Source: an uncultured Gemmatimonadota bacterium (GTDB lineage Bacteria; JAAXHH01). Taken from it: a stretch of DNA of 64,000 nt. The notes under the pieces were generated by a model that saw only the letters and a list, made by a program, of their open reading frames with translations, searched no databases and had not been told where the DNA came from. Position numbers and translations under genes: made by a program. How positions within the stretch are numbered: position 1 is the first letter of the stretch; each line of letters opens with the position of its first letter. This document shows, piece after piece, positions 3,718 to 55,852 of this stretch. The stretch spans positions 2,240,001 through 2,304,000 of the forward strand of contig OX638340.1 in assembly GCA_951812955.1 (NCBI GenBank), read 5' to 3'.

Positions 3718-4334
3718 ATGTAGTGCCCGCGTCCTTTCTCCGGCAGCACGTCGAAAATCAAGTGCACCCGTGGTTCGTTTGTCGGGTTTCTCGCTTCGTG
3801 CAGCGCCTTGTTGTCGAACACCCACAGCTCGCCTTCCCGCATCACTATGGTTTCACCTTCTGCGGTCATTGGACTCCCCTCCGGGCTCCTCAGCACAAGG
3901 TGGTATCGATCACGTATTCGGTAGTAAGCGCCGGCGTCGGTATGAGGTCGAACCCACCCCTGAGGTTGCAAGGATACCAGTGTAGCGCGTCCAAGTACAC
4001 CCCGATGAAGCGTGGCGATCTCTTTACAGAACGCCAGCGTTCGGGGGAATTTTCTAGCAGTAGCAGTAGTGCGACTGTCATGGACGTCGTTGGCGTTTTT
4101 CGCTCCTGGAGGCAGTGGTTTTTTAGCGGTACGCAGAAAGATATTTTGGGTGTCGCGTTGACAACGAACCTTGCGTTGCCGACTGGTATCGGCGAGCCAA
4201 AGATCTGGTACTGTGTCCAATTCCAGCATTAGCGGTTCAATATCGATGCCCGTCGCGATCCGGGTGAAACGCTTACCTGCCGGTGACACATCATTTGATT
4301 CTTTACCGGGAATCACATCGGTCTTGTGTATCAC
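3699..4334 (-). CDS. aspartyl/asparaginyl beta-hydroxylase-family cupin (2OG/Fe(II) oxygenase)
   Basis: 211-aa ORF with the family-typical core VRPHTDAGAYYRIRDRYHLVL ... GELWVFDNKALHEARNPTNEPRVHLIFDV (H-x-D ... H iron ligands). No hydrophobic TM segment. The GTG start at 4334 is uncertain. The 3-prime end overlaps the convergent gene 2119-3717 by 19 bp. Confidence 0.7.
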   Translation of the reverse strand: MIHKTDVIPGKESNDVSPAGKRFTRIATGIDIEPLMLELDTVPDLWLADTSRQRKVRCQRDTQNIFLRTAKKPLPPGAKNANDVHDSRTTATARKFPRTLAFCKEIATLHRGVLGRATLVSLQPQGWVRPHTDAGAYYRIRDRYHLVLRSPEGSPMTAEGETIVMREGELWVFDNKALHEARNPTNEPRVHLIFDVLPEKGRGHYIYAPTE

Positions 4335-4469
4335 AAACGACCACCCTTACCGCCATATGCCAATGGGATTGATCAGCACCATCTCAGTATTCAACACAAG
4401 TAGTTACGTATGCTGGAGCCAGCTCAACAGGCCAGAAAGTACACGTTCGGTTAATCGAACAGCCATGAA

Positions 4470-5483
4470 TCAGTCGTCATCGTCGTCATCTTTATCATCG
4501 TCGTCATCGTCATCGTCGTCATCGTCGTCATCATCATCGCCGTCGCCATCCCCGTCACCATCCCCGTCGCCATCGCCATCGCCATCGCCGTCACCATCGC
4601 CGTCGCCATCCCCGTCTCCATCACCATCACCGTCGCCATCTCCATCACCATCGCCGTCACCGTCGCCATCCCCATCGCCGTCCCCATCTCCATCGCCGTC
4701 GCCGTTACCTCCAGAGTTCCCACTGGGCGGTGGACTTAACTCTTCATCGCCGTCGCCATCCCCATCGCCGTCTCCATCACCACTGGGCGGTGGACTTAAC
4801 ACTTCGTCACCGTCGCCATCCCCGTCGCCATCCCCGTCTCCATCACCGTCGCCATCCCCGTCTCCATCACCGTCGCCATCGCCATCCCCATCGCCATCGC
4901 CATCACCGTCGCCATCGCCATCCCCATCGCCATCGCCGTCACCATCCCCATCACCATCACCGTCGCCATCACCGTCGCCATCCCCGTCCCCATCTCCGTC
5001 GCCATCCCCGGCCCCGTCCCCATCGCCATCGCCGTCACCATCGCCGTCGCCATCCCCGTCTCCATCACCGTCCCCATCACCGTCGCCATCCCCGTCCCCA
5101 TCACCATCACCGTCACCATCGCCGTCACCGTCACCATCGCCGTCCCCATCGCCACCATTTGAACTTGTGGTATTTGTTACCACACTTGCGTTGTCCTCGT
5201 TATTGCTACCTGCATCCCCGTTCCCATCCCCATTTCCGTTCCTATCTCCATTTCCGTCACCATCTCCATCTCCATCGCCATCTCCGTCCCCGTCGCCGTC
5301 CCCATCGCCGCTGCCACCCGGACTCTGAGCACTCCCCACCTGATTCGCACTCGTGGCGAATCCAGACCCTGATCCCATGGGGTTCAGATCGTTGTCCCCT
5401 CTGCAACCCAGGATCATGAGCAACGAAGCGACAGTCAGTTGCATTCTTCGCAACCATTGCATAATGGTTCGGCACAAGGCCAT
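4470..5483 (-). CDS. poly(Gly-Asp) repeat lipoprotein with poly-Asp C-terminal tail
   Basis: 337-aa ORF. The N-terminus MQWLRRMQLTVASLLMILGC has a basic n-region, a hydrophobic core and a lipobox-like ILGC. Blocks of (GD)n follow, broken by two SPPPSG linkers, and the protein ends in DDDDDDDDDDDDDDDKDDDDDD. Codon degeneracy supports this frame over the opposite-strand (SP)n frame (see findings). Alternative starts lie at Met8 or Met14. Confidence 0.65.
   Translation of the reverse strand: MALCRTIMQWLRRMQLTVASLLMILGCRGDNDLNPMGSGSGFATSANQVGSAQSPGGSGDGDGDGDGDGDGDGDGDGNGDRNGNGDGNGDAGSNNEDNASVVTNTTSSNGGDGDGDGDGDGDGDGDGDGDGDGDGDGDGDGDGDGDGDGDGDGDGDGAGDGDGDGDGDGDGDGDGDGDGDGDGDGDGDGDGDGDGDGDGDGDGDGDGDGDGDGDGDGDGDGDGDGDEVLSPPPSGDGDGDGDGDGDEELSPPPSGNSGGNGDGDGDGDGDGDGDGDGDGDGDGDGDGDGDGDGDGDGDGDGDGDGDGDGDGDGDGDDDDDDDDDDDDDDDKDDDDDD
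4473..5311. repeat. hexanucleotide coding repeat, plus-strand pattern (R)TC(N)CC = minus-strand GGN-GAY
   Basis: A period-6 repeat runs through almost the whole gene. A 20-nt element cactgggcggtggacttaac occurs twice, exactly 60 bp apart (4721-4740 and 4781-4800). Confidence 0.95.
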
Positions 5484-5817
5484 GGCACGCTACCTATTTG
5501 CCGGTTTGGAAATACAGTACAGGAGTGTTATTTGATTGTAATACGGAGCACACACAATCATGAGGAACCCTACCTTTGCCGTGACAGGCTATAGGGAACG
5601 TCACGGCAGACACAGATAGTAGGTAACGTTGTGTACCCTAAATAAAACCGGATTCCAGCTTGGATGTCAATGATTTAGACTTCAAGGTGATCACAAGACC
5701 TTTACATGACACAGTAATCCGTCCACTTTCGCCATTTCGATTCCTATCACAGCAACTAGGAATACGGCACCGCGGCGACAGTCCTGGCCTTGCATACACG
5801 GGTATATCAATCAGGTA

Positions 5818-6177
5818 CTAAGGCTTGTCGATCCAGACCGGATCCGGCGTGATGCTCGTCTCTGGCGGCGGCCCGGTATCGGTCCATTCTTCCTCGTTCT
5901 CGAGGAGGAATCCGGGTTCGACCGACATGTCGTGATCGCAGATGATCTGGCAGGACAACCGTACCTCGCCGACCAGCCCTTTCTCGGAAAGTACCGCGTG
6001 CTCGGCCTCGGTCATCGTGTCCGGCTCGCCCTCACTGATGGTCACCCGGCAGGTTGTGCACTTGGCGTTCCCACCGCACCGGTGGCCGATGTTCACCCCG
6101 GTGCCCTCGATAGCCAGTACCAGACGCTGCCCGGAATCGACTTCGTTCTCCACTCCGTTGACGGTAAGTTTCGGCAT
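5818..6177 (-). CDS. 2Fe-2S ferredoxin
   Basis: 119-aa ORF with the cluster-binding pattern HRCGGNAKCTTCRV ... RLSCQI (C-x5-C-x2-C ... C). Confidence 0.8.
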   Translation of the reverse strand: MPKLTVNGVENEVDSGQRLVLAIEGTGVNIGHRCGGNAKCTTCRVTISEGEPDTMTEAEHAVLSEKGLVGEVRLSCQIICDHDMSVEPGFLLENEEEWTDTGPPPETSITPDPVWIDKP

Positions 6178-6274
6178 GATTCCCTGCTCCTTTCGCGTGT
6201 GTGCTAAACCAGTCTCAAGTGGGTTGTGACTCCATCTCGATCGAATTCAGTACAAGTATCTCCGTTTGCTACGA

Positions 6275-7066
6275 TTAAATAACGTGACCCAGCCGGTCCC
6301 GAGTATGTTCCAGGTCCACCCAGCGATGCGGTCCGTCGGTTACAGCGTAGCACACCTCGTAGACCGGATTCTCCGTGGCCTGCAGGGCCAGTTCGATGAT
6401 CCGCGTGATGTCCGCCTGGCTGCACCAGACCGATCGCAGGAAGGGTTCTGTTGCCTCGTTCTCCTTGTTGACCCATCCGATGCGAAGGCAGACGACGGAA
6501 AAATCGTGGGCATCATGGTAGGTGCGGCAGATCCCCTCGCCCCAGATCTTGCTGGCGGAATAGGGTTCCGTGGGCCGCGGCGGATCGGTGACCTTGACGA
6601 TAGGCATGGGATCGGGCAGCCCCTCCAGACGGCCCTTCAGTAGCGACACGTACGGTTCGTCAAATTGACCGTATCCCCAACTCGCCATGACGGAACTCGC
6701 GTAGATCATTCGCCTGATGCCCTGTTCCCGGCAGACCTCCAGCACGTTGTAGGTACCCCGGATGTTGGCGTCCAGAATGGTCTCGAAGGACGCGCCCGGA
6801 TCGGGGACGGCGCCGAGATGGACCACGGCGTCCATGCCCTCGAGAGCCCTGGACACGGCATCGCGATCGGTCAGATCGGCCAGTGAGAATCGATCTTCCG
6901 GGATGCGCAGGAGATCCTCGTCGTCGATGCGGTCCGACGACACGGTCCGGCGGCCGCTGCCGTAGGCTTCGTACTCATCCTTTCCGCTCAGATACCTGTA
7001 GGTCAGGTTGCCGATCAGTCCGTACGCTCCTGTTACGTGGACCTTCAAGGGTGTTCCTTCGCTCAT
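6275..7066 (-). CDS. NAD(P)-dependent epimerase/dehydratase (extended SDR)
   Basis: N-terminal Rossmann motif VHVTGAYGLIGNL and catalytic YxxxK (PYSASKIWGE). Confidence 0.8.
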   Translation of the reverse strand: MSEGTPLKVHVTGAYGLIGNLTYRYLSGKDEYEAYGSGRRTVSSDRIDDEDLLRIPEDRFSLADLTDRDAVSRALEGMDAVVHLGAVPDPGASFETILDANIRGTYNVLEVCREQGIRRMIYASSVMASWGYGQFDEPYVSLLKGRLEGLPDPMPIVKVTDPPRPTEPYSASKIWGEGICRTYHDAHDFSVVCLRIGWVNKENEATEPFLRSVWCSQADITRIIELALQATENPVYEVCYAVTDGPHRWVDLEHTRDRLGHVI

Positions 7067-10380: not shown

Positions 10381-11136
10381 ATGACTCCCCACGAAAGATA
10401 CCTCTTCGACCTGCAGGGTTTTATCGAGGTCCCGGACGCGTTGGACGCCGGGCAGCTCGCAGAACTGAACGGCATACTGGACGAGAAGATCGACGGGGCC
10501 ATGGCACCCGGCGCCACCACCCACCGATTCGGCTTCACCCTGCTCGACTGGGGACCAACCTACCGGGAACTGATCGACAATCCGCGGATAGATCCTTATC
10601 TGGAACAACTGATCGGTCCGAAGTACCGGCTGGACCACGATTATGCCGATATCATCCGAAAAGGCGACGGTCCAATCGGCACGACCCTCCACGGAGGCGC
10701 CATCCCCTTCGACCCCCTCTACTCCTACACCTGCACCAACGAAGAGATCCGTTGCGGCCTGACTGTGGTCGCCTACTACCTGAAGGACGTAAATCCAGGC
10801 GACGGCGGATTCGGCTGCGTGCCCGGCAGCCATAAGAGCAACTTCCGGTTCCCGGACGAGTGGCGCAACCTCAAGACCGACCAGCCCTTCATCCGCGCCG
10901 TAACCGGCAAGGCCGGCACCGCCGTCATATTCACCGAGGCCCTGACCCACGGCACCATGCCCTGGCACGGTGACGAGCGCCGCACCCTCTTCTACAAGTA
11001 CTCGCCCAATTCGATATCCTGGTACGCGGAATACTATGACGCCGACCGGTACGAAGGTCTGACGGAACGGCAGCAGGAGATCCTTGAGGCACCGAACGCG
11101 CGGTATGGAGAACGGTCTAAGCGTGGGGTTGTGTAG
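10381..11136 (+). CDS. phytanoyl-CoA dioxygenase (PhyH) family protein
   Basis: 251-aa ORF with PhyH-like motifs (TLHGGAIPFD, GFGCVPGSHKSNFRFP, TEALTHGTMPW). Confidence 0.8.
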   Translation: MTPHERYLFDLQGFIEVPDALDAGQLAELNGILDEKIDGAMAPGATTHRFGFTLLDWGPTYRELIDNPRIDPYLEQLIGPKYRLDHDYADIIRKGDGPIGTTLHGGAIPFDPLYSYTCTNEEIRCGLTVVAYYLKDVNPGDGGFGCVPGSHKSNFRFPDEWRNLKTDQPFIRAVTGKAGTAVIFTEALTHGTMPWHGDERRTLFYKYSPNSISWYAEYYDADRYEGLTERQQEILEAPNARYGERSKRGVV

Positions 11137-11214
11137 GTGGGCTTTACGGATAGACCAGTTGATATTACGACCACATTTATTTGCTCATTGATTTACTGTA
11201 TCTCGAGGTTACAA

Positions 11215-11505
11215 ATGGACGTTAAGGAAGCCGTAAGTACGGCCATAAAACATATTGCAGATGTATACTCGGAAGAGGGAATCTCGCATATTGGATTAGA
11301 AGAGGTAGAATACGACGAGATTAACTCACAATGGAACGTGACCGTTGGATTTGCACGTAAGTGGGACTTCCCTACTCCGGTTCTTATCCCCGTATTACCT
11401 TCACCAAGACCAAACCAAAGAACCTACAAAATCGTAGTAATTCGTGATAGAGACAAGAAGGTCACCGCAATGAAGATAAGGGATTTAGCTACGTCGAATG
11501 AATAG
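11215..11505 (+). CDS. small hypothetical protein (candidate antitoxin/partner of the PIN-like gene)
   Basis: 96-aa ORF starting at the ATG at 11215, preceded by gaggtt. Its stop overlaps the next gene's start by 8 nt (ATGAATAG). No recognisable DNA-binding motif. Confidence 0.45.
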   Translation: MDVKEAVSTAIKHIADVYSEEGISHIGLEEVEYDEINSQWNVTVGFARKWDFPTPVLIPVLPSPRPNQRTYKIVVIRDRDKKVTAMKIRDLATSNE

Positions 11506-11968
11506 TGTGCTTATAGATACGAATCTACTTGTCCTTTTGGTTGTAGGATCTACCGATAGAGAGTTTATTAGTCGACATAAACGCACAAAATCGTTCATAC
11601 CCAGAGACTATGACGAACTGACACGTCTGTTGTCGGGATCTCGTGAGTTATGGGTTACTTCTCACTGTCTGGCAGAGACATCGAATCTTCTGAAGCAAAC
11701 CGATAAAACAAAAGCACAGATCTTGTTACATACTCTTGCGGCCTACTGCGATATTGCCCGCGAATCGCATATTCCCAAAGAGACGGTATTTGGATACGAG
11801 AACTACCGCAGACTTGGCGTCACCGACACCGGCTTCATATACTCATCCGAAACAGTCTCTCGATCTATAACAGTAGATTTCAACTTGTACATCGAACTGA
11901 GTAACCTTGGCAGAGAAGTGATAAACTTCCACCACATCCGTGCTTCGTATCTCCAGAATGTCGATTGA
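11498..11968 (+). CDS. PIN-like nuclease domain protein (candidate toxin)
   Basis: 156-aa ORF with an N-terminal VLIDTNLLVLL motif and spaced acidic residues (CLAETSN, GVTDTG, TVDFN), consistent with a PIN-fold active site. Confidence 0.5.
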   Translation: MNSVLIDTNLLVLLVVGSTDREFISRHKRTKSFIPRDYDELTRLLSGSRELWVTSHCLAETSNLLKQTDKTKAQILLHTLAAYCDIARESHIPKETVFGYENYRRLGVTDTGFIYSSETVSRSITVDFNLYIELSNLGREVINFHHIRASYLQNVD

Positions 11969-12089
11969 CACGACGATCACACAGTTTTGCACATTCCAGT
12001 GCTTAGTTTTTGGTCAAGACCAACCTGTAGTTAAAACCAACCAATGGCCCTGAAGAAATCCCAAAATTTGGTAAACACTGCCAGGAGAG

Positions 12090-13034
12090 ATGCCACCTAT
12101 GCTTGACGAATTGGTTGGATGTATCGATGAACTTAAAGATCGTATTTCCAAATACCGAAACTCACTAAATGAGAACGAAACTCGTACTCGAATGCAGTTA
12201 ATAGATCCGCTGCTTCGTGTGCTGGGCTGGGACGTCTCCGATCCACGGTACGTTATCCCAGAATTCAAGGTGTCCGATGGTTGGGCTGACTATGCCTTAT
12301 TGCGGGATGATGGTAAGCCTGCTGCTATGGTGGAAGCTAAAAAACTGGACGAACCGTTAAAGCCCGCACACCGTGCTCAGATGTTGAAATACGCAATTGA
12401 GTTGGGTATCCCATACACTGGTTTGACAGATGGAAATCACTGGGAGTTGTACAATGTTTTCCAACCGGTACCTATGGAGGACAAACAGATCTTGGATGTT
12501 ACTTTATTGGATTCCCACTCCCACGAAAGTGCACTAAAGTTACTGCTGCTCTGGAATCCAAATCTAGACGCCGGCAGCGCGGTGAAAGCAAATGAACCTG
12601 TTCTCGTCGACACTCAGAATGGCGGTTCGATTCCTCCAATAATCGTTCCGCCACCATCGAACTGGAAGGCACTTTCAGATTACGAACCACCAGCAGGAAC
12701 ACCCGCACCTAAGGCTATTAGGCTTTGGGATGACTCAGAAAGAGAAGTGCATCATTGGTATGAAATTCTCACCATAGTAGCCGAAAAGCTCTACAACGAA
12801 AATGTCCTTACATTGGAACATATACCGATTCAATGGGCTAAAAAGACCTATAGTATTCACTCTCAACCAGTACATCCGACCGGCAACAAGTTTGAAAATC
12901 ATAAAGAAATCGGTAACTCGGGATTGTTCGTAAACGTAAATTTAAATACCGGTCAAGTACGAAATAACACCCGGAATCTACTGAAGAAATACAACATTGG
13001 TACAGAGAAGGTTTACCTCAAGGTAGCCGATTAG
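12090..13034 (+). CDS. HsdR_N-type PD-(D/E)xK nuclease-domain protein with an unknown C-terminal domain
   Basis: The N-terminal 130 aa match the type I restriction enzyme R-subunit N-terminal pattern: NENETRTRMQLIDPLLRVLGWD ... WADYALLRDDGKPAAMVEAKKL ... TDGNHWELY. The C-terminal 150 aa are unassigned. Confidence 0.6.
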   Translation: MPPMLDELVGCIDELKDRISKYRNSLNENETRTRMQLIDPLLRVLGWDVSDPRYVIPEFKVSDGWADYALLRDDGKPAAMVEAKKLDEPLKPAHRAQMLKYAIELGIPYTGLTDGNHWELYNVFQPVPMEDKQILDVTLLDSHSHESALKLLLLWNPNLDAGSAVKANEPVLVDTQNGGSIPPIIVPPPSNWKALSDYEPPAGTPAPKAIRLWDDSEREVHHWYEILTIVAEKLYNENVLTLEHIPIQWAKKTYSIHSQPVHPTGNKFENHKEIGNSGLFVNVNLNTGQVRNNTRNLLKKYNIGTEKVYLKVAD

Positions 13035-13447
13035 GTAGTTTCGTTGACCTACCATGTTGAGGAGTGATATTTCTTGATCTCCACAGACAAGGTTAAGGGT
13101 AAACCACAGCATACCTCCTCACTATCAGGCACGGTTCCTCAGTACGTTGAAGCGATATCAGCAACTCGCTAGCTAGCAGCTACCTGCCCCGTCGCATGGA
13201 ATACTGGGTACAAACCGTCTTTCACTTTAGTGGCGATTTGTTCACGGCTCCGTTCGTCAAATACAATTGAGCCCACTAATTCCACCTGTTTACCTCGACA
13301 AACAAGAGTACAGATCAATCACTTCGTATGACAAAACTCATTCAACTTCTATTCGAAATTGGAATCGGTGACCACCACTCAACCTCTGAATCGTGTGAGA
13401 CTGATGAAGATTCGCTGGTACATGGAAAGGATAATGGAGTGTAATTG

Positions 13448-15622
13448 ATGAATTCAACGTCTGAAGAAACCACCACCCGTCCCTGTTGGTTTGTGGGCGC
13501 CAGTTATTCTGGTACGGGCGATCAAACTGAGCGATTTCTCACGGAAGGTATCTGGGAGAACGGCTTCGACAACGATCATCCGGCCGTCGCGATGACCAAA
13601 ACCATTCAGCCCGGAGACCCAATCGCGATCAAGTCCGCCTACGTTCGCAAACACGACCTACCTTTTGACAGTCGCAACCAGTTCGTATCCGTAATGGCGA
13701 TCAAGGCCATCGGGACGGTTTTAGAGAACATCGGTGATGGCCATACCGTTAAGGTTAAATGGAATAAGGAGGTAACTCCGCGAGAATGGTATTTCTTTAC
13801 TAACAGAGGTACAGTTTGGAAAGTATCGCCTGGTAGTGACTGGTATTCCGACGCCCTGATCGGATTCGCGTTCGAGAACAAGCCGCAGGATATCGATCGT
13901 TTCTTAAAAGTGCCGTATTGGAGGGAGAGGTATCGAGGAGACACGCTCAATGATCAACGGTTTGCGTGGACGAGGTTCTACGAGGCCTTTGCGGATAAGC
14001 TGCTCACATATAGGAACAAGCGCTTAGACTTAATAAATGGTATACAAGAAATAGCTGCCAGAGAGTATGCCATGTTGGTTCTGAGGGATCAGTTTCGGGA
14101 CGGTACGATCGGTCCACTCAAAGACATATGCCCATTTACTACCATCGGATTGTTCAATAAGGGAATAACGAATAGCAATCGAAGATCAATTGCATCAGAA
14201 CTCGCTGAATTGCTGGGAGTGTCAGAGTCGGTTCCGGATTCATTCGATGGAATACCTGTTCTCAACAATCAGAATTCCTGGTTTTTTTCGTATGAAAAAA
14301 ACCGACGACCGGAAGATATTGAAATCCTTTGGAATGTTTACTCCCGTGCAATTGCCTTCGCTGATTCAGATGATTCCGATGCGCGATCTGCTTTCGTCTC
14401 TGCTTACGACGACGCATCCGAGGTTTCTCACGTAGGTTGGAAACTTACATTTGGGCTGTATTGGATACGGCCTTGGGATTTCCCCGTCCTCGACACGAAT
14501 ACCCGGCGTTACCTGGACAAGAAACTCAATATTGAGATCGGACTAAATGGACCGAAAAGGGGATACTGTAGTGCGAACGACTACCTGACGGTCCATGACA
14601 CACTTGAAAAGAGGTTTCTGGAGGACACATATCCGGTTCGTTCTTTTCCAGAACTAGCACGCGAAGCCTGGTTGTATAAGCCCGGTGACCCGGATCCCCC
14701 GCCAGATAGCGGTCTGGATCCCCCGCCACCACCTGTCCCTTATTCACTCGATGATATCGTGAAAGACGGCTGTTTCATTGCCAGAGATAAACTCGAGTCG
14801 ATACTCAATCGACTCCGTACCAAGAAAAACCTCATTCTACAAGGCCCTCCAGGAACCGGGAAGACTTGGCTCGCCAGGAAGTTGGCCTACGCTTTGATCT
14901 GTGAGCGAGACGAAAGCAAGGTTCGTTCGGTACAGTTCCATCCCAATCTCTCTTACGAAGATTTCGTACGTGGTTGGCGGCCGGCGGGAGATGGTAAACT
15001 TACGCTCGTAGATGGCCCCTTCATCGCCATAAGGGACGAGGCCGAAAAAGATCCTACTACTCGATACGTCTTGGTCATCGAAGAGATCAACCGGGGCAAT
15101 CCCGCACAGATTTTCGGCGAGATGCTGACATTGTTGGAGACCGACAAGCGAACTCCAGACGAAGCCTTGGAATTGGTTTATTCAAAGACTCCGGATGAGC
15201 GATTCTTTGTTCCTAACAATCTGTTTGTCATCGGGACGATGAACATTGCTGATCGTTCACTGGCACTTGTAGACCTGGCATTACGCCGTAGATTTGCATT
15301 TATCGATCTGGAACCTACCCTTGGCAAGACTTGGCGAGACTGGGTCCATTCTAAAAACGGGATAGATAACGAGACTCTCACCGAAATTGAGCATCGTATA
15401 GATGATCTGAACCGGACGATCTCCAATGATTCCGGTCTTGGCTCGCAATTTCGCTTGGGGCACAGTTATGTGACGCCGCCGTTTGAACAGCCGATTAAAG
15501 ATGGGAGAAAGTGGTACAGGGAAGTCGTTGAAACGGAAATTGGACCACTACTCGACGAATACTGGTTCGAAGACCTCGCGAAATCTAGAAACGCAAAAAA
15601 GAAACTTTTGGATGGTTTTTAG
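13448..15622 (+). CDS. mcrB: McrB-family AAA+ GTPase with a roughly 450-aa non-canonical N-terminal region
   Basis: Walker A ILQGPPGTGKTWLARKLA, FHPNLSYEDFVRGWRP, VLVIEEINRGNPAQIFGEMLTLLE and FVIGTMNIADRSLALVDLALRRRFAFIDL. ATG at 13448, 8 nt after GGAG. A proline-rich linker (PGDPDPPPDSGLDPPPPPVP) precedes the AAA+ module. Confidence 0.85.
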   Translation: MNSTSEETTTRPCWFVGASYSGTGDQTERFLTEGIWENGFDNDHPAVAMTKTIQPGDPIAIKSAYVRKHDLPFDSRNQFVSVMAIKAIGTVLENIGDGHTVKVKWNKEVTPREWYFFTNRGTVWKVSPGSDWYSDALIGFAFENKPQDIDRFLKVPYWRERYRGDTLNDQRFAWTRFYEAFADKLLTYRNKRLDLINGIQEIAAREYAMLVLRDQFRDGTIGPLKDICPFTTIGLFNKGITNSNRRSIASELAELLGVSESVPDSFDGIPVLNNQNSWFFSYEKNRRPEDIEILWNVYSRAIAFADSDDSDARSAFVSAYDDASEVSHVGWKLTFGLYWIRPWDFPVLDTNTRRYLDKKLNIEIGLNGPKRGYCSANDYLTVHDTLEKRFLEDTYPVRSFPELAREAWLYKPGDPDPPPDSGLDPPPPPVPYSLDDIVKDGCFIARDKLESILNRLRTKKNLILQGPPGTGKTWLARKLAYALICERDESKVRSVQFHPNLSYEDFVRGWRPAGDGKLTLVDGPFIAIRDEAEKDPTTRYVLVIEEINRGNPAQIFGEMLTLLETDKRTPDEALELVYSKTPDERFFVPNNLFVIGTMNIADRSLALVDLALRRRFAFIDLEPTLGKTWRDWVHSKNGIDNETLTEIEHRIDDLNRTISNDSGLGSQFRLGHSYVTPPFEQPIKDGRKWYREVVETEIGPLLDEYWFEDLAKSRNAKKKLLDGF

Positions 15623-16743
15623 TGGTGAATGGCCCAGTAGTTAGTACGGCTGACGAGACGATCGAACAGGCCGGGTATATCGGTCGTATCCCTTTACGAA
15701 ATATCTGGCTGCTCATGCTTTACGCCTCTGACCTTTTCAGGCAACTTGATGCGTCTGAATACCGCTCCTTCGAAGATAATCCTGATGACCTGCCCGATCT
15801 GGTTGCCGAGATCCTATCACATGAAGTCGAACGTCGACTAAAGCGAAATCTGAGTTACGGCTACCAATACCGTAACGAAGTGCTCGGACGGGTTCGCGGA
15901 CGTATCGACCTTTTACAAACCGAAGCTCATCAACTACTGCAACGCGGCATGGTCGCCTGTCGATTCGACGAACTGACAATCGACACACCGAGGAACAGGT
16001 ACGTTCGATCCGCCCTCGAGATGATATCCAAATATGTTCGTCGAAAAGACCTGGCTCACCAGTGCAGGTCCCTCGTTGGAAGCCTTAGGCGACAGGGAGT
16101 CGTTGGAGAACGACCTGGGCGTGAGGTGACGTCAGTTGAGCGATACGGTAGACATGACGCTGTTGACCGCAAGATGGTGGATGCGGCTCGTCTTGCCTTC
16201 GAAATGGCCATTCCGACCGAGCAGACCGGTTCCAGGCACCTTCCACTACCGGACCGTGATATAAACTGGATTCGCAGACTCTATGAGAAAGGCGTTGCAG
16301 GATTCTATGATGTGGTACTTTCCAGAAGGGGATGGAATGTGTATCCGGGAACGATTCTCAGATGGCCCACGACAGTCAGAAGTCCGCGAATAGACGGGAT
16401 ACTACCCTCCATGCGGACCGATATTGTGTTGGATCATGTTGACGAAGGCCGACGGATCGTTATAGACACGAAATTCAACTCGGTTTTGTCGAGAGGTTGG
16501 TATCGAAATGAAGGGATACGAAGCGGATACATGTACCAGATCTATGCTTACCTTAGGTCGCAGGAAGAGAGTGGTGATCCGCTTGATTGTAATGCAGAGG
16601 GAATGTTTCTCCATCCGTCGGTTGGTGAGATGTTCAACGAATGGGTAGATATTCAGGGTCATCGGATCCACTTCAATACCGTTGATCTCGCAACCGATAC
16701 ACAGACCATCAGATCGCAGTTGTTGGATGCGGTGAAACCTTAA
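15622..16743 (+). CDS. mcrC: McrC-family nuclease subunit
   Basis: The GTG start overlaps the mcrB stop (TAGTG). C-terminal PD-(D/E)xK motif MRTDIVLDHVDEGRRIVIDTKF followed by YQIYAYL. Confidence 0.75.
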   Translation: MVNGPVVSTADETIEQAGYIGRIPLRNIWLLMLYASDLFRQLDASEYRSFEDNPDDLPDLVAEILSHEVERRLKRNLSYGYQYRNEVLGRVRGRIDLLQTEAHQLLQRGMVACRFDELTIDTPRNRYVRSALEMISKYVRRKDLAHQCRSLVGSLRRQGVVGERPGREVTSVERYGRHDAVDRKMVDAARLAFEMAIPTEQTGSRHLPLPDRDINWIRRLYEKGVAGFYDVVLSRRGWNVYPGTILRWPTTVRSPRIDGILPSMRTDIVLDHVDEGRRIVIDTKFNSVLSRGWYRNEGIRSGYMYQIYAYLRSQEESGDPLDCNAEGMFLHPSVGEMFNEWVDIQGHRIHFNTVDLATDTQTIRSQLLDAVKP

Positions 16744-16834
16744 ACTGACTTTGCTCTCGACATAGTCGTTCCACCAGCCCATTTCCCGCATCCGTTTGGT
16801 GTGTTCGGCAGCTTCGGTAATCTCAAGATTTGAC

Positions 16835-17761
16835 TCACCCCGCCTTCCTGAAGACCTCGAAACGACGGTCCAGCCGGTCCTGGTCCGGATGGTCACGGGT
16901 GCGTGAAGGCAGGTGCAGTCCCGATCCGTCCAGTTGCTTGAGGGCCTGGAGCATGGGACCGTCATCCTTGTCCAGCAGGCGGTCGGATACGTGCAGCCGG
17001 TAGTCGGGATCAATGCCGATCAGGTGGGCGTCAAAGGCCGCATGATGAATCTTGGACAGGGCCAAGCCGTTGGGTACGACGGGTTGTCCCAATGCCTCGT
17101 CGCCATCGGCAATGATGTGGGCGGCATCCAGTAACTGCGTTTCCGGTAGGCCGGTAATGGCACAGCGGCCGCGATAGGCGTGAAGGACAGCCTCGCGGAA
17201 CGTGGCTTGGTGGAGTCGTTCCTTGACCATGCGCAGGGCATACCGCCGCTCTACCGCGTTAATCGGAGCTTCCATCTCGGCCTGGTTGGGGTTCCCAAAG
17301 GCAAGCGTGGACTTGAGCGCGAATCCATCCCAATTGGAGATGAAGGTGGGAATGATCGCCTGATACCGGCTGGGAGACACACCGAGAAAGTAGATCACGG
17401 GAATCTGATTCTCCCAGGCAACCTTTAACCACTGGTTGTCTGCTGCTGCCGGGTCCTGTCCCATGAAGGCGTAGTCCACGGAATCGTTGCCCTCGAAAAT
17501 CTGGCTGTGGACCTGCTTTTGGTCGTCGTACCAGACTCGGCCGCCCGGTCTGGGGTACACGGTCCTGATCGAGAGAAGGTACCGCATCCGGCGCGGCTTG
17601 AATATGCCCCGCTGCGGATTGACAAGGGGGATCCTTTCGCCTTCGAATACGAACCCCGGCGCCAGTTCGTCCCTCGTAAGGTGGCCATGGGTTTCACTCA
17701 GCCGCCGCACGTGATCGAACGCGGCCATCCGCATCCTCGGATCTCGGTCGTCGACGTTCAT
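16835..17761 (-). CDS. HNH endonuclease (HNH_2-type) with an N-terminal putative DNA-reader domain
   Basis: C-terminal half has RGRCAITGLPETQLLDAAHIIADG ... NGLALSKIHHAAFDAHLIGIDPDY. The N-terminal 170 aa are unassigned (GIFKP, VWYDDQ, YAFMG motifs). Confidence 0.8.
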   Translation of the reverse strand: MNVDDRDPRMRMAAFDHVRRLSETHGHLTRDELAPGFVFEGERIPLVNPQRGIFKPRRMRYLLSIRTVYPRPGGRVWYDDQKQVHSQIFEGNDSVDYAFMGQDPAAADNQWLKVAWENQIPVIYFLGVSPSRYQAIIPTFISNWDGFALKSTLAFGNPNQAEMEAPINAVERRYALRMVKERLHQATFREAVLHAYRGRCAITGLPETQLLDAAHIIADGDEALGQPVVPNGLALSKIHHAAFDAHLIGIDPDYRLHVSDRLLDKDDGPMLQALKQLDGSGLHLPSRTRDHPDQDRLDRRFEVFRKAG

Positions 17762-17770
17762 CTCAGTCCT

Positions 17771-18733
17771 TTACCCCCGGTAAATCCTCTCATTGTGCCA
17801 GGATAGTACTTCGGTGGACGGCTGGTCCACCGCATTCCTGGGAACGACAATCTGTTTCCCGTGCAAAGAGTAGTAATCGCGCCCGTTCTCGAATTCCTCC
17901 CGGACCTGTCCGCTGACCTCGAAGTGCAATTCAGGGGTCACCGTTACGTATCCGGAATCGAACAGCCCGTGGATGTCGCGCCTTAGCAGCAGTCCGTTCC
18001 TGGCTTCGTGGATGCCCCCTTCGCTGTAGGGACGGATGTGCGCGGCATCAAGGGCCGGCAGCGTCCGTTCGCGGGTAACTGCGCAACGGCGGTCGTAAAG
18101 GTCGGTTACCAGGGCCCTGAAAGCACCTTGACCGAGACGCGGTTTGACCAGTTGCGGTTTGCCGTAAAGGGTTTGCCCGGCCAGGAGGCCTGAGGGTTCG
18201 GCCACGATGCCGGCAGGATTTGCAGATACACTGGTTGGCTGTCGGAATTCCAAACGGCCGTTGACTGCGTCCCACAATGCCCGTCCGTCTGAGTCACCGG
18301 TACTAAATGTCTTTAGTGACACGATGTTCGGCGACCATGTCGACGGCACATCGACAAACTCGGATGCCTCGAAGAAGAAGGGTTGGGTAAGGATCCGGCA
18401 GCCAATCTTGTAATCGCTCGGCTCACGTGGGTCAACATTACGGTAACGTGAGATACGATTTCGCATTTCCTGCAATGTCTCGGCACCGTTGGCTTCCCCG
18501 AATGCTTCCCATGCAAGGGAACAAGGCATCACATTGGCATAGGCAAAAACGCCGCCGCCAACGATTACGTTGTACGGCGCGTGTAGCTTGAAGAGGAACA
18601 GTTCACCGGGCTGAAGTGCCTTGAAGTTCGTGCCAGAAGGCGCCCAGAAGTTGACCTCCTCCAGGTGCGGCTTCTGCCGGAGAGTCTTGAACCAGTCCCC
18701 GTCGGTCACGGCAACGACCAGCTTGATGTCCAT
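17771..18733 (-). CDS. HNH endonuclease (HNH_2-type) with a different N-terminal domain
   Basis: RRCAVTRERTLPALDAAHIRPYSEGGIHEARNGLLLRRDIHGLFDSGYVTV. The N-terminus MDIKLVVAVTDGDWF ... EVNFWAPSG ... GELFLFKL is unrelated to that of the neighbouring HNH gene. Start chosen at the ATG at 18733. The gene ends 9 bp before the next HNH gene. Confidence 0.8.
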   Translation of the reverse strand: MDIKLVVAVTDGDWFKTLRQKPHLEEVNFWAPSGTNFKALQPGELFLFKLHAPYNVIVGGGVFAYANVMPCSLAWEAFGEANGAETLQEMRNRISRYRNVDPREPSDYKIGCRILTQPFFFEASEFVDVPSTWSPNIVSLKTFSTGDSDGRALWDAVNGRLEFRQPTSVSANPAGIVAEPSGLLAGQTLYGKPQLVKPRLGQGAFRALVTDLYDRRCAVTRERTLPALDAAHIRPYSEGGIHEARNGLLLRRDIHGLFDSGYVTVTPELHFEVSGQVREEFENGRDYYSLHGKQIVVPRNAVDQPSTEVLSWHNERIYRG

Positions 18734-19076
18734 AGCGCGAATTCCGGTAAACTTTGGTGCTATTGGGATACAGGCAGATCCGATCAACGGACAACCGCAA
18801 CCGTGCGTCTCGCTGATCGAGCCTTATCATCTAAAATAAAAGACGGCAACCATGGCAGGTCAAGTGCCGCCTGTGCGACCCGGTTTTTGACGTTTGGAAC
18901 ACAGAACGAGTGCTTCCAGATTGCCTTGACCAAATGTACCTGTTAGTTTACTGAACGTTGGTACACTTGATCTCATAAGTTATCAGGAGATTACGAGCGA
19001 GTAGTGAAAGGAACGATTCATATCTTATGTTGTGTAATTTAAATCATATATCGGAAATAGTACATAGGGGAGTTGT

Positions 19077-19359: not shown

Positions 19360-20754
19360 ATGCCCCCGATCGACATCGGCTCACGCCGCGAGCTCTTTGT
19401 AGACTCATTTCTGATCGACACCCTCACGGACGCCCACCAACATCTTCACGAACCCGTTCTAAAGGAGACGGTATTCCGCGTAGAGGAACCTCTGGAGAAC
19501 GCCTGTACGGGTTGCTACAACCTGGTACAGACAGACGGCAAAGTCCTGGTGTATTACCGCGGCTATCACCCCACGGGCAAACACGAGGATCTGCCCGAGG
19601 GTTGGGCGGAAACGCAGACGACAAACCTGCTGGTCAGCGATGACGGCATCCACTTCGAACGGCCGAACCTGGGCCTGGTGGAAGCGGAAGGTTCGAAGGA
19701 CAACAACATCCTCGTCCGGGGCCGCGAGGCACATAACTTCTGCGTCTTCCTGGACGGCAATCCGGAAGTGGCGCCCGATCAGCGTTTCAAGGCCGTCGGT
19801 GGAGAAGGCAGGGACAGTCTCTTCGGTTTCACTTCATCCGACGGATTGACCTGGAAACCGGTGCAGGACGGTCCCCTCGCGATCACGGGCGCCTTCGACT
19901 CGGTGAACGTGCCCCTTTGGGACGACTACGCGGGTTGCTACCGCCTCTTCAGCCGGTACTTCGAACAGACGGGGGAAGACGGCGTCGGGGTCCGGGCAAT
20001 TCAGAGCTGCACCTCGGAGGATTTCATCCACTGGACCACGCCCGAACATCACGTGTACGGCGAAGGCGTCCCGTTCGAGCACTTCTACACCAACGCCACC
20101 ACGCCATGCCCTGGCGCGGAACACATCCTGCTGTCCTTTCCCATGCGGTTCGTGCCGGAACGGACGAAGGACATCAAGGGCATGGATTACCCCGGGGGCG
20201 GCGTGTCCGACGCTATATTCATGTCGAGTCGGGACGGCGTCCACTGGGACCGGAGTTTCATGGACGCCTGGCTGCGCCCGGGCCTGGAAAAGCGCAACTG
20301 GACGCACCGCAACCAGACGCCGGCCGCGGGAATCGTTCCGACAGCCCCGGACGAATGGTCGATGTACGTCGCCGAGCATTACGGATGGGACACCAACGGC
20401 GTGAGGCGGGTGACCGTCCGTCCCCACGGTTTCGCCTCCGTCCGGGCAGGCTACTACGGTGGCGAACTGTTTACGAAACCCCTGACCTTCACCGGATCGA
20501 CGCTGTATATCAACTACTCGGCGTCCGCCGTGGGCGCCGTGTCCGTGGAGATTCAGGATACGGAAGGTCGAGCCTTGGAGGGATTTGCGGCAAACGACAT
20601 GGATCCCCTGTTCGGCGACGACCTGGACGCCCCGATTACGTGGAAGGGCTCCGACGGTCTGAATGGCCTGAACCGGCTGAACGGTGTGCCGGTCCGCCTG
20701 CGGTTCATCCTGAAGGACGCCGATCTCTTCTCGATCCGTTTCGGAGATTCCTGA
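19360..20754 (+). CDS. uncharacterised protein, probably a beta-propeller glycoside-hydrolase-like fold
   Basis: 464-aa ORF. The N-terminus IDIGSRRELFVDSFLID and repeated W/D-rich strands resemble uncharacterised GH32/43-superfamily-like proteins. The function call is weak. Confidence 0.4.
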   Translation: MPPIDIGSRRELFVDSFLIDTLTDAHQHLHEPVLKETVFRVEEPLENACTGCYNLVQTDGKVLVYYRGYHPTGKHEDLPEGWAETQTTNLLVSDDGIHFERPNLGLVEAEGSKDNNILVRGREAHNFCVFLDGNPEVAPDQRFKAVGGEGRDSLFGFTSSDGLTWKPVQDGPLAITGAFDSVNVPLWDDYAGCYRLFSRYFEQTGEDGVGVRAIQSCTSEDFIHWTTPEHHVYGEGVPFEHFYTNATTPCPGAEHILLSFPMRFVPERTKDIKGMDYPGGGVSDAIFMSSRDGVHWDRSFMDAWLRPGLEKRNWTHRNQTPAAGIVPTAPDEWSMYVAEHYGWDTNGVRRVTVRPHGFASVRAGYYGGELFTKPLTFTGSTLYINYSASAVGAVSVEIQDTEGRALEGFAANDMDPLFGDDLDAPITWKGSDGLNGLNRLNGVPVRLRFILKDADLFSIRFGDS

Positions 20755-34710: not shown

Positions 34711-35118
34711 TCACTCCCCTTGAAATTCCAGACGCACAACGTCAATGCCAAGCGACTCCGCGGCGCGGGCCAATGACCGGTCCAGGGTCAGCAGAGGCGC
34801 ATTGTACCTGATGGCGGTCTCCAGAAAAAAAGCGTCGGCCGCCACTCCCTTCATTCGAGACGCGATCGAAAGGATCTGGGCCATGTCCACGTCCACGTAA
34901 CGTAGCGGGATGTTGCCCAGGATCTCCATGCCTCTGCGCGCCTCCTCGGCGTCGATCCCTTTCTGCCGGATCATGACGGAGAAGGCATGGCAAATCTCCC
35001 ATCGAACGAAATCCGGCGCGATGAGGACGTGACCCGAAGCCGCTTCGGCCAGGGCACCGCGTTCCGGACCCTGCATTACGGATGCAATAATCGCCGATGT
35101 ATCGATGACCATATTCAC
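34711..35118 (-). CDS. vapC: PIN-domain toxin VapC
   Basis: MNMVIDTSAIIASV ... and conserved acidic residues. A strong SD (AAGGGAGG) precedes the GTG start at 35118. Confidence 0.8.
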   Translation of the reverse strand: MNMVIDTSAIIASVMQGPERGALAEAASGHVLIAPDFVRWEICHAFSVMIRQKGIDAEEARRGMEILGNIPLRYVDVDMAQILSIASRMKGVAADAFFLETAIRYNAPLLTLDRSLARAAESLGIDVVRLEFQGE

Positions 35119-35138
35119 GCTGAAACCTCCCTTTTAAT

Positions 35139-35166
35139 ATTGTACAATTGTACATCATTATGTCAA
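35139..35166 (-). promoter_or_regulatory. sigma70-type promoter with an embedded 14-bp perfect palindrome (candidate TA operator)
   Basis: On the minus strand: TTGACA (35166-35161), 16-nt spacer, TACAAT (35144-35139). The palindrome TGTACAATTGTACA occupies 35141-35154. Confidence 0.6.
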
Positions 35167-35490
35167 CAAAAATAACGAAACCCCGTATTTACAGGCCTTT
35201 AGGGGTTGCCGCCGACTTGGCGGCATTGACCAGCGGAGATCACCACAGATGCAATTCATGGTACGTGCGGCCGGCCGATTCAAAGGATTATGACGCAAGA
35301 CGTTCGCGCAATTACCCTTTTTCAGCGGCCATTGTTCACACACCGGTCACACTTATTTCGTTATATTTGAATGGAATGGGCGTTTTTTTAGATACCTTCC
35401 TATTGCCTACGTATCCGGTTGACTTCATGCGGGCTTGGATCCGTCGATCGTAACAGCAGTACGTTAATCACTTCTACGGGGATAGCGATC

Positions 35491-36003
35491 ATGAACGGCA
35501 CATTGAGTGAAGGAAGCAGGCGGGAGTTGACGGACAGGTTCGTTTGTGCGGTGCAGCACCTGGGCCGATTGATGCACAACGGACGGCTTGGCGAACTGAA
35601 GAAACTCGACCTGAACGCCCACCAGGCGGATACCCTGATGTTGCTGTATCATCACGGGCCCACCCGGATGGGGACCCTGGCGAACTACCTGGGGAGTAAA
35701 CTGCCGCACATGTCCCTCATTGTAGGTCACCTGGTCAACAAGGGTTACATTCAACGAAGTTCGGATCCAAAGGACCGGAGAGTGGTTATCTGCGAATTCA
35801 CTGCAAAAGGCAGGAAGGCTGCGCAACAGATCATACAACATACGAGGATACTCGTGAACGAGGTGGCCGAAAAGTGGGATTTCGAACAGTTCGAATCCGT
35901 GGTCGAGTCGCTGGAATCGTTTTGGGACCCAGAATCGGGAGTTCCCGGATCAGCCGTTTCTGGGCAGCGCCAGTCCAGAGACAGGTTGTTGGAAGAGATG
36001 TAA
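35491..36003 (+). CDS. MarR-family transcriptional regulator
   Basis: Winged-helix core LDLNAHQADTLMLLYHHGPTRMGTLANYL ... DPKDRRVVICEFTAKG. ATG at 35491. Confidence 0.8.
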   Translation: MNGTLSEGSRRELTDRFVCAVQHLGRLMHNGRLGELKKLDLNAHQADTLMLLYHHGPTRMGTLANYLGSKLPHMSLIVGHLVNKGYIQRSSDPKDRRVVICEFTAKGRKAAQQIIQHTRILVNEVAEKWDFEQFESVVESLESFWDPESGVPGSAVSGQRQSRDRLLEEM

Positions 36004-47965: not shown

Positions 47966-48289
47966 TACCTCGGTGCTTGCCGAAATCAAGGAAGTGCAGG
48001 ATCGTGCGGGTTTCTGCGTAGGCAGATTTTGGAGATCCATCGGTAAATGCGTTGAAAGTTGGAGTGGTGGAGATGGGGTTCCTCAAGCCACACTTGAAGA
48101 ATACAAACATTAGTTGGTGTGTCCGTGATTGTGTCCTCATTACATTGCGGAACCAGACTGAATAGTATATCATACTCGATATACATTTGGATCTTACGAT
48201 CCAGTGGAAGGAAGAGTTCCCAGGACCAACCCAATCTTGGATTTGTGGATCTTATACAAGCGTTGCGACGATCAGTGGAGCGAACAACG

Positions 48290-48505
48290 ATGAAAAACGA
48301 GTTCACTGCGATTATCGAAAGGGACGAAGAAATATACATTGCTTTTTGTCCCGAAATACCGGAAGCGAATGGCCAAGGCGCGACCAAGGATGAAGCCTGC
48401 GAGAGCTTGGCAGAGGCCATTGCCCTTGTATTGGAAGATCGCCGGGAAGAGGGGCTTCGCGGAGCAGCCCCTGGAGCTATTCGAGAAAGAGTCACCATTT
48501 CGTGA
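48290..48505 (+). CDS. hicB: HicB-family antitoxin
   Basis: MKNEFTAIIERDEEIYIAFCPEIPEANGQGATKDEACESLAEAIALVLE (UPF0150/HicB N-terminal fold pattern). Confidence 0.75.
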   Translation: MKNEFTAIIERDEEIYIAFCPEIPEANGQGATKDEACESLAEAIALVLEDRREEGLRGAAPGAIRERVTIS

Positions 48506-48690
48506 AACGGAGGAGTTTAATCCGACATCTCCAAAGACACAACTGTCAACTCAAACGCGAAGGACGTTCGCATTCATTGTGGTGTAATTCGATAACGGGG
48601 GCTGTCGAAACAATTCCTCGTCATACCGAGATTTCTAACCGTCTGGCGCGTAAGATATGCCGAAATCTCTCAGTTCCTGATATACTGTAA
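48502..48690 (+). CDS. hicA: HicA-family mRNA interferase toxin
   Basis: RRSLIRHLQRHNCQLKREGRSHSLWCN ... IPRHTEISNRLARKICRNLSVP. The GTG start overlaps the hicB stop (GTGA). Confidence 0.8.
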   Translation: MKRRSLIRHLQRHNCQLKREGRSHSLWCNSITGAVETIPRHTEISNRLARKICRNLSVPDIL

Positions 48691-48809
48691 CCATGACTAA
48701 TCGTCTTGTGATTTGATCAACAAAGTTGTTTGCAGAATTACCTGTTCTCCAGAAGTACCCCTCCCATCTGAAACAGCACTCCTCAAAGGCAATCTGAGTC
48801 AGCGTTACG

Positions 48810-48824
48810 ACGTCAAGATGACGT
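48810..48824 (+). terminator. weak hairpin plus T-rich tract after hicBA
   Basis: ACGTCA aga TGACGT followed by TTTATCTT on the plus strand. The stem is short and the loop only 3 nt, so support is low. Confidence 0.25.
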
Positions 48825-48839
48825 TTATCTTCGAAGTAC

Positions 48840-53059: not shown

Positions 53060-53090
53060 GGGCACTCCTGAAAGGTTCTGCAGCAACCGG

Positions 53091-53180
53091 CTATGGACTA
53101 CTTGATCCAGATGCAGCCTACAAATGGTTTTTCAACATCTGATTATGGACTACTTGACGCGACTGATTATGGACTACTTG
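53091..53180. repeat. three copies of (g)attatggactacttg upstream of the hypothetical gene
   Basis: ctatggactacttga (53091-53105), gattatggactacttga (53141-53157), gattatggactacttg (53165-53180). Confidence 0.85.
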
Positions 53181-53220
53181 TGATTATGTACCTTCTGTTC
53201 CAGACGCAGATTAAAATGGG

Positions 53221-53266
53221 TCCTGGACACGGTTATTCATACCTTCTGGACACGGTTATTCATACC
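53221..53266. repeat. 23-bp x2 tandem duplication spanning the permease stop codon
   Basis: tcctggacacggttattcatacc (53221-53243) / ttctggacacggttattcatacc (53244-53266). The minus-strand stop (tta at 53256-53258) lies in the second copy. Confidence 0.9.
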
Positions 53267-55718: not shown

Positions 55719-55852
55719 GGCGGATCTCCAGCAGCTTAAAACGGGATTTCGTACAGGAAGCAGAAGCCACCCCAACCTTATGCGGACAATATAGTGTTCC
55801 CCTCGACTTTTCGGTACGACATTACAGGCGTAACGCGGCAACCAGGAGCACC

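Follow-up and report, generated by a model that had tools for sequence, protein, structure and literature searches.

A tandem of predicted reader-HNH_2 nuclease genes in an uncultured Gemmatimonadota bacterium: a probable bicistron of two type IV restriction enzymes

In a 64,000-nucleotide stretch of the genome of an uncultured Gemmatimonadota bacterium (assembly GCA_951812955.1, contig OX638340.1, positions 2,240,001 to 2,304,000; hereafter the window), two adjacent genes on the minus strand, here named geneA and geneB, encode proteins with a C-terminal HNH_2 nuclease module and an N-terminal domain that is predicted to adopt the fold of a modified-base reader (Table 1). We consider it probable that the two proteins are autonomous, single-chain, nucleoside triphosphate (NTP)-independent type IV restriction endonucleases made from one bicistronic transcript. 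That there are two separate enzymes of this kind is supported because the N-terminal halves of the proteins are unrelated even when compared as sequence profiles. The original prediction, drawn from the letters of the window, had likewise proposed a pair of type IV enzymes, each a single chain with its own kind of reader, covering different DNA modifications and stacked next to McrBC. The proposal of two readers fared better than that of a link to McrBC.

The layout of the pair agrees with that prediction. The two open reading frames (ORFs) lie on the minus strand and are separated by a spacer of exactly 9 nt, AGGACTGAG, which runs from the TAA of geneA to the ATG of geneB and includes an AGGA Shine-Dalgarno-like motif. 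Such a spacer would imply a bicistron and co-transcription and, possibly, translational coupling. The ORF of geneA extends further upstream (17771..18787, minus strand), with a TTG at 18787 as an alternative start and the ATG at 18733 internal. We take 18733 to be the correct start because homologues begin at an MDIKLVV-type ATG (motif MxI(K/N)LV) and none begins at the TTG. The AT-rich non-coding DNA 5' of geneA is the presumed promoter region; a scan of it for sigma-70 promoters returned no site, and terminator-like sites were no more frequent than expected by chance. At the other end the pair converges on mcrC, as had been claimed: mcrC terminates 91 bp from the geneB stop codon.

The C-terminal parts of the two proteins are homologous nuclease modules. 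In a Pfam scan PF13391 (HNH_2) matches geneB at residues 200-251 (E 5.2e-11) and geneA at residues 217-265 (E 3.6e-12), the two proteins scoring 42.7 and 46.4 bits against a gathering cut-off of 21, which places both in the HNH_2 family. Both carry the motifs C-A-I-T / C-A-V-T, LDAAHI, NGLAL / NGLLL and H..FD. In the 65-sequence alignments, C217, H232, N246, H255 and D259 of geneA and C200, H215, N231, H239 and D244 of geneB are invariant or nearly so; the five positions comprise the Cys, the His that acts as general base, the Asn, and the His and Asp that bind the metal. The catalytic residues look intact in both copies, and neither appears dead. BLASTP aligns geneB 177-298 with geneA 194-311 at 29% identity (E 4e-11), and profile-profile comparison with hhalign aligns the HNH part alone (probability 97.8%); the two comparisons give identities of 29-30%. 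Both halves of the earlier description are thus borne out, namely that the C-terminal HNH modules are alike and that the N-terminal halves share no similarity. The HNH part of geneA also matches the crystallised enzyme VcaM4I (6yex), with E 4e-7 as a single sequence and 7e-9 as a profile, and with 35% identity over 88 columns in hhalign (probability 97%). Scans of both proteins against Pfam, NCBIfam and PADLOC gave nothing outside the HNH region. A phosphorothioate-dependent identity (NF045808, phosphorothioate-DNA restriction) was rejected, the match being far under the cut-off and confined to the HNH region.

Since neither N-terminus is recognised by sequence in any library, we predicted the structures of both proteins with AlphaFold2 (AF2). 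The overall predicted local distance difference test (pLDDT) values are low, 63 for geneA and 65 for geneB. The reader domains of the models are usable, with residues 51-80 of geneB at only 50-55; the HNH regions of both models fall below 50, and we draw no conclusion from those parts. The helix that precedes the HNH module is long in the geneB model (residues 169-195) and spans residues 148-162 in that of geneA. The best structural match of the geneA N-terminal domain is an ASCH protein of Zymomonas (5guq, score 12.3), followed by AF2351 (2kku, 10.6), EVE proteins (8.1-8.4), the N-terminal domain of Staphylothermus McrB (8.3), VcaM4I (8.2), YTH domains (about 8), THYN1 bound to 5-methylcytosine (5mC) DNA (7.8) and the N-terminal domain of Thermococcus McrB on m5C DNA (6.9), so that two archaeal McrB domains are among the matches. 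The geneA N-terminus is thus predicted to have a fold of the PUA superfamily (EVE/ASCH/YTH/SRA), and the model firmly supports, at the level of fold, its assignment as ASCH/EVE/YTH-like. The resemblance to VcaM4I does not extend to sequence: phmmer, hmmsearch and hhalign find no similarity between the geneA N-terminus and the VcaM4I EVE domain, which keeps geneA out of the EVE-HNH group. Searches of the PDB by single sequence and by profile return the HNH part of VcaM4I as their sole match.

For the geneB N-terminal domain the structural matches include SUVH5, ScoMcrA, TagI, MspJI and UHRF1, and TagI is the top match in Foldseek. We assign the domain, with moderate confidence and on the basis of a model of pLDDT 65, to a divergent SRA-like branch within the PUA superfamily. 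A search with residues 1-170 retrieves 1449 clusters (50% identity) at E<=1e-3 from 1.84 billion representative proteins. Across the family I53, P56, M59, L63, S64, Y78, D80, L112, P121, I123, F125 and W144 are invariant; by eye, and with no significant alignment, they look like the SRA motifs 'GxH/FxP', 'S-I/L-V', 'Y-x-D-D', 'Y-x-G' and 'P-V-R/I-V/Y'. The sole local hhalign alignment places 'RIPLVNPQRGIFKPR' of geneB onto 'RFRVQVSESGVHRPH' of UHRF1, which is suggestive and below significance. With reader folds predicted for both N-termini, the domain assignment called for by the original prediction came out in its favour, firmly for geneA and moderately for geneB: the models support two distinct families of reader, each with a predicted modified-base-reader fold from the PUA superfamily.

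Published enzymes of this layout indicate how the two proteins might work. VcaM4I and TspA15I of the EVE-HNH group (6yex; PMC7897488, PMC6765204) are built in the three parts predicted for geneA and geneB: the PUA-superfamily reader comes first, a helical linker follows, and an HNH_2 module forms the C-terminus. VcaM4I depends on 5mC or 5-hydroxymethylcytosine (5hmC), is a dimer through its HNH domains and has a linker helix that auto-inhibits the nuclease until modified DNA is bound (PMC7897488). It differs from geneA in its EVE reader, which is without sequence or profile similarity to the geneA N-terminus, and it has been described as a stand-alone gene, whereas geneA here stands in a bicistron. 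The SRA-HNH enzymes TagI, ScoA3IV (Sco5333) and TbiR51I (6ghs; PMC6212794, PMC4333417, PMC6765204) combine an N-terminal SRA-like fold, such as the one predicted for geneB, with a C-terminal HNH module; the TagI chain has 285 residues against the 308 of geneB, and no methyltransferase is linked. In contrast to this likeness of predicted fold, geneB is unrelated at the sequence level to the SRA domains of TagI, ScoMcrA and UHRF1 and constitutes a large family of its own. Unlike TagI and ScoA3IV, it often occupies the second position in a bicistron. ScoA3V (Sco5330) of Streptomyces coelicolor, a PUA-like-HNH enzyme with 6mA (N6-methyladenine)-stimulated nicking, has homologues reported in Actinomycetales only (PMC6765204). 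Compared by description only, it resembles geneA in being a PUA-superfamily-HNH protein whose reader lies outside the EVE clade. Its position near the SRA-HNH gene ScoA3IV (three genes, by locus-tag numbers only) is the nearest published parallel to the geneA-geneB pair (PMC6765204), but the Streptomyces genes are no adjacent bicistron.

Experiments have established that PUA-HNH and SRA-HNH fusions are modification-dependent; of those tested, the groups of TspA15I and ScoA3IV prefer 5mC or 5hmC, and 6mA stimulates ScoA3V (PMC6765204). With the layout that geneA and geneB share with VcaM4I and TagI, a PUA-superfamily reader joined through a helical linker to an HNH_2 beta-beta-alpha-metal nuclease, the reader of each protein would flip the modified base into a pocket, and the HNH_2 module would form a homodimer that cleaves the two strands close to the mark. 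Cleavage would depend on the modification and on a divalent metal, and would not depend on NTP. By the same analogy the SRA-like reader of geneB may recognise 5mC or 5hmC. The two genes may read different DNA modifications. Pairing them would broaden the range of modified phage and plasmid DNA that is attacked, with neither gene requiring the other.

The pair is far from unique to the window. Database searches yield more than 8000 homologues of geneA and, at E<=1e-3, 6827 of geneB. The best 120 matches of both proteins are 63-99% identical to them (65-99% for geneA) and come from Gemmatimonadota, Alpha-, Beta- and Gammaproteobacteria, Planctomycetota and others; the databases label these relatives merely 'HNH endonuclease' or 'putative restriction endonuclease'. 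Across 185,579 species genomes, with one genome per species, geneB relatives occupy at least 563 matched stretches scattered over phyla. The pair itself is found in at least eight phyla and in dozens of unrelated genomes, with examples in Gemmatimonadota, Planctomycetota, Pseudomonadota, Nitrospirota, Chloroflexota, Acidobacteriota, Rhodothermales and Nitrospinaceae. The order is always geneA then geneB, and the spacer measures 8-13 nt in 11 of the 12 metagenomic pairs (152 nt in the remaining one) and 9 nt in a Pirellulaceae locus (L001 in our numbering). The adjacency is not due to chance, because this order and the 8-13 nt gap recur in dozens of unrelated genomes.

At the same time, geneA and geneB are not an obligate pair, and each occurs alone more commonly than paired. 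Among the 82 loci found through geneB, geneA lies directly upstream in 32 and not in the other 50; in three of these 50 (L013, L030 and L055) part of geneA is present, either cut off by the contig edge or as a truncated remnant, leaving 47 without any trace of geneA. Among the 84 metagenomic and viral loci found through geneA there are 12 full pairs, 51 loci without geneB and 21 that are too short downstream. A locus was called as lacking geneB where at least 400 bp of downstream sequence was present (51 of the 63 loci with room), and in four geneA-found loci (L087, L111, L131 and L108) there is a geneB start at the contig edge or a frameshifted geneB. A frameshifted or truncated partner stands beside an intact gene in L028, L055 and L108. 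Single copies of both families are present on megaplasmids of Methylibium, Azospirillum, Bradyrhizobium, Mesorhizobium and Deinococcus, and geneA-type genes on four viral contigs, two with the pair and two with geneA alone. Some loci depart from these arrangements. A Bryobacterales locus (L076) has two geneA copies (1841-2755 and 5515-6378) about 3 kb apart, upstream of a single geneB; in L080 geneA (4059-4529 and 5884-6378) is apparently split by an insertion of about 1.35 kb; and contig OZ242252.1 of Candidatus Foliamicus carries two geneB-type genes about 18 kb apart (L049 and L052), both without geneA.

The short spacer and fixed order raise the question whether the HNH_2 domains of geneA and geneB pair with each other, so that the proteins would work as a heterodimer, whether obligate or preferential. 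The ribosome-binding motif in the spacer would suit such an arrangement, as would the homology of the two HNH modules and the fact that in related HNH enzymes the nuclease domain mediates dimerisation (PMC7897488, PMC6212794). Pairwise identities among geneA proteins and among their geneB partners are also correlated (r = 0.80, 36 pairs), although one cluster of closely related Gemmatimonadota sequences partly drives this value. However, the predominance of solo genes and the decayed partners beside intact genes speak for independence, and geneA has an alternative partner of the VcaM4I type (see below), VcaM4I being a homodimer. Paired and solo states are, moreover, scattered on the geneB tree, with 24 Fitch changes against a mean of 27 for shuffled states; this is a weak test, the neighbour-joining tree being poorly resolved at about 70% identity. 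With the same reservation, these counts led us to reject the idea that paired and solo states are specific to clades. We regard the heterodimer as unlikely, at least as an obligate form.

One or both proteins could also be modification-independent nucleases, whether sequence-specific enzymes of type II or IIS, non-specific nucleases or toxins, with an N-terminal domain that binds plain sequence. HNH_2 does include the type II enzymes AlwI, BbrI and HphI (PMC5714182). In PADLOC, the HNH regions of both proteins are matched by PDLC03546, a model named 'Type II restriction enzyme', and the reader assignment of geneB is insecure. However, a sequence-specific nuclease without protection would be lethal, and there is no methyltransferase gene adjoining the pair in the window. 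Methyltransferases are rare elsewhere as well: among the 104 nearest neighbours of pairs a single one is Pfam N6_Mtase, and at most two members match any PADLOC methyltransferase model. The lack of a linked cognate methyltransferase, which holds for both genes, fits type IV and not type II restriction. The predicted folds, too, are those of base-flipping readers and not of type II recognition domains. Modification-independent cleavage therefore strikes us as quite improbable.

A role outside defence has to be weighed as well, with the proteins serving as housekeeping or repair nucleases or as RNA-directed enzymes, for instance in the removal of damaged or aberrant bases or through action of the ASCH-like domain on modified RNA. 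The pair is syntenic and apparently vertically inherited in Gemmatimonadota relatives, conservation across phyla is very high, and the best structural match of geneA belongs to the ASCH proteins, known mainly from RNA or nucleotide chemistry (PMC11037411). The 104 neighbours fall into 86 Pfam families, none of them present in more than three loci, and are chiefly ordinary metabolic genes. On the other hand, these neighbours occasionally include type I restriction-modification genes, IetAS, recombinases, HipA and SNase, and copies are at times found beside type I or type ISP restriction-modification genes, Iet, recombinases or toxin-antitoxin modules. No conserved third gene was found around the solo geneB loci and the pairs. 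The patchy occurrence over scattered phyla, the copies on megaplasmids and viral contigs and the pseudogenised copies make up a mobile and decaying distribution that is typical of mobile defence genes and not of core repair. We consider a housekeeping function very unlikely.

Several observations weigh against our reading of the pair as two autonomous type IV enzymes. Identity across distant phyla is 63-73%, which is unusually high for defence genes and points to strong constraint combined with repeated horizontal transfer. The divergence of the two genes is correlated, their order is fixed and the spacer keeps to 8-13 nt, all of which could reflect functional coupling and not mere co-carriage. 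Relaxed Pfam scans (E<=10) of 65 aligned homologues for each protein detect no family of reader domains, the models SAD_SRA, EVE and ASCH included. A profile made from divergent geneB N-terminal domains, built from 21 relatives 37-61% identical to the window protein, finds no match in the PDB, and hhalign of the geneB N-terminal profile with the UHRF1 SRA domain (using a sequence 100% identical to 3dwh_A) gives a probability of 0.3%. As for geneA, ASCH domains have so far been shown to act just on N4-acyl cytosines and RNA (PMC11037411). The original prediction that the genes encode separate type IV enzymes, each a single chain and each with another reader, has its support in the different predicted PUA-superfamily folds and the absence of a linked methyltransferase, but geneB failed every sequence-level test of SRA homology (Pfam SAD_SRA, TagI, ScoMcrA and UHRF1).

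A second tandem sheds light on what geneA might contribute. In loci L151 (3422-5358) and L132 (2778-4921) another reader-HNH_2 gene lies directly upstream of the geneA-type gene. That of L151 is homologous to VcaM4I along its whole length (6yex, E 2e-92, residues 1-314), and its stop codon overlaps the geneA start; that of L132 encodes a similar VcaM4I-type protein of 331 amino acids. In L085 and L152 an upstream signal of this kind is seen at the tblastn level only. An unannotated ORF of 481 amino acids lies just 3' of the geneA-type gene in L151 (5440-6885). The operon partner of geneA-type genes is therefore either a homologue of VcaM4I, a cytosine-mark reader, or geneB, whose predicted fold is like those of cytosine-mark readers. 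No better hint is at hand that geneA may add some other specificity. Reading of 6mA in DNA by ASCH domains has been predicted and never demonstrated (PMC4738411, PMC11037411). As a speculation that we rate as doubtful, geneA would be the first natural nuclease with an ASCH-type DNA-modification reader, complementing cytosine-mark readers by recognising, for example, 6mA, N4-methylcytosine, N4-acyl-C or some hypermodified base; in that case the cassette would amount to a type IV module that combines two readers, in which mixed dimers of the geneA and geneB HNH domains possibly integrate two marks. If true, a complementary specificity of this kind would explain why geneA repeatedly shares operons with SRA-like-HNH (geneB) or VcaM4I-type EVE-HNH genes. 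On plasmid pM0123d of Mesorhizobium amorphae (L168, 465-4915), a geneA homologue of 55% identity lies 113 bp downstream, on the same strand, of an annotated type ISP restriction/modification gene; this locus bears on 6mA reading by geneA provided that the type ISP enzyme methylates adenine.

The McrBC genes beside the pair belong to a separate story. McrBC, as known from E. coli K-12, also performs modification-dependent restriction, but unlike geneA and geneB it is built from two subunits, with an AAA+ motor that depends on GTP and a PD-(D/E)xK nuclease. It differs from the pair in evolutionary origin and in GC content, and its adjacency to the pair is not conserved. In the window mcrBC lies with three further ORFs (11137-13034) in a stretch of low GC content (about 11000-16800, 45-49%, against 55-60% for the host and the geneA/geneB pair). 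The pair occupies the same chromosomal slot in the closest relatives, and what lies downstream of geneB varies: between geneB and the PhyH-family gene there is a PIN-domain gene and no McrBC in L003, McrBC in L006, and McrBC plus the three extra ORFs in the window, and there is no McrBC within the fetched sequence of L004 and L005. McrBC adjoins the pair in only one of the 82 geneB loci (L006). Because the slot content varies and McrBC is confined to L006 among these loci, we interpret the site downstream of geneB as one where insertions vary, and we regard the convergence on mcrC as incidental. McrBC was accordingly rejected as a functional partner, and the significance that the original prediction gave to stacking next to McrBC gives way to an accident of lineage. 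McrBC is a separate NTP-dependent type IV system, a later neighbour outside the cassette, and the window holds three predicted modification-dependent systems side by side. The N-terminal 432 residues of McrB (13445-14740), ahead of AAA_5, have no Pfam match at E<=0.1 and no PDB match at E<=1; the region is probably a further unclassified reader of DNA or of its modifications. There are no tRNA genes in the 64-kb window that would mark an integration site. Other patches of low GC content in the window, at 35000-36000, 48000-49000 and 53000-56000 (50-52% against about 60-65% around them), may be horizontally acquired segments.

Table 1. Positions of the gene pair, its domains and the surrounding features in the window
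Feature	Position	Strand	Description
geneA	17771..18733	-	320 amino acids; first cassette gene; predicted ASCH/EVE-like PUA-superfamily reader, linker and HNH_2
geneA N-terminal reader domain	18248..18733	-	about residues 1-162; predicted PUA-like beta-barrel
geneA C-terminal module	17771..18166	-	HNH_2 (beta-beta-alpha-Me), including stop codon
Intergenic spacer	17762..17770	-	AGGACTGAG, 9 nt
geneB	16835..17761	-	308 amino acids, ATG start; second cassette gene; probable divergent SRA-like reader, long linker helix and HNH_2
geneB N-terminal reader domain	17291..17761	-	about residues 1-157; probably SRA-like
geneB C-terminal module	16835..17233	-	HNH_2, including stop codon
Region 5' of geneA	18734..19060	-	AT-rich non-coding DNA (about 330 bp); presumed promoter region
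Conserved gene	19360-20754		464 amino acids; one flank of the slot
mcrC	15622-16743	+	McrC model, 395 bits against a cut-off of 338
mcrB	13445-15622	+	AAA_5 and McrB model
HSDR_N-like ORF	12090-13034		314 amino acids
Small ORFs	11137-11505, 11498-11968		overlapping; in the low-GC stretch
PhyH-family dioxygenase gene	10381-11136		other flank of the slot; confirmed in L003 and L006

Taken as families, geneA and geneB are new, large and unannotated members of the known PUA-superfamily-HNH class of type IV enzymes, and they leave the current picture of type IV restriction unchanged. Our literature searches found no description of a recurrent bicistronic pairing of the geneA-geneB type. If confirmed, the two genes would represent two large unannotated families of modification-dependent nucleases. 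Enzymes of this kind serve as tools for epigenetic mapping, and new reader specificities would therefore be of practical value. An ASCH-like reader fused to a nuclease would also permit a test of whether ASCH domains read DNA modifications, a long-standing prediction that is still unproven. The tandem arrangement is modular, and the recurrence of bicistrons that join different reader-HNH genes suggests that 'reader stacks' are put together by bacteria in the form of operons, beyond the loose grouping of defence islands.

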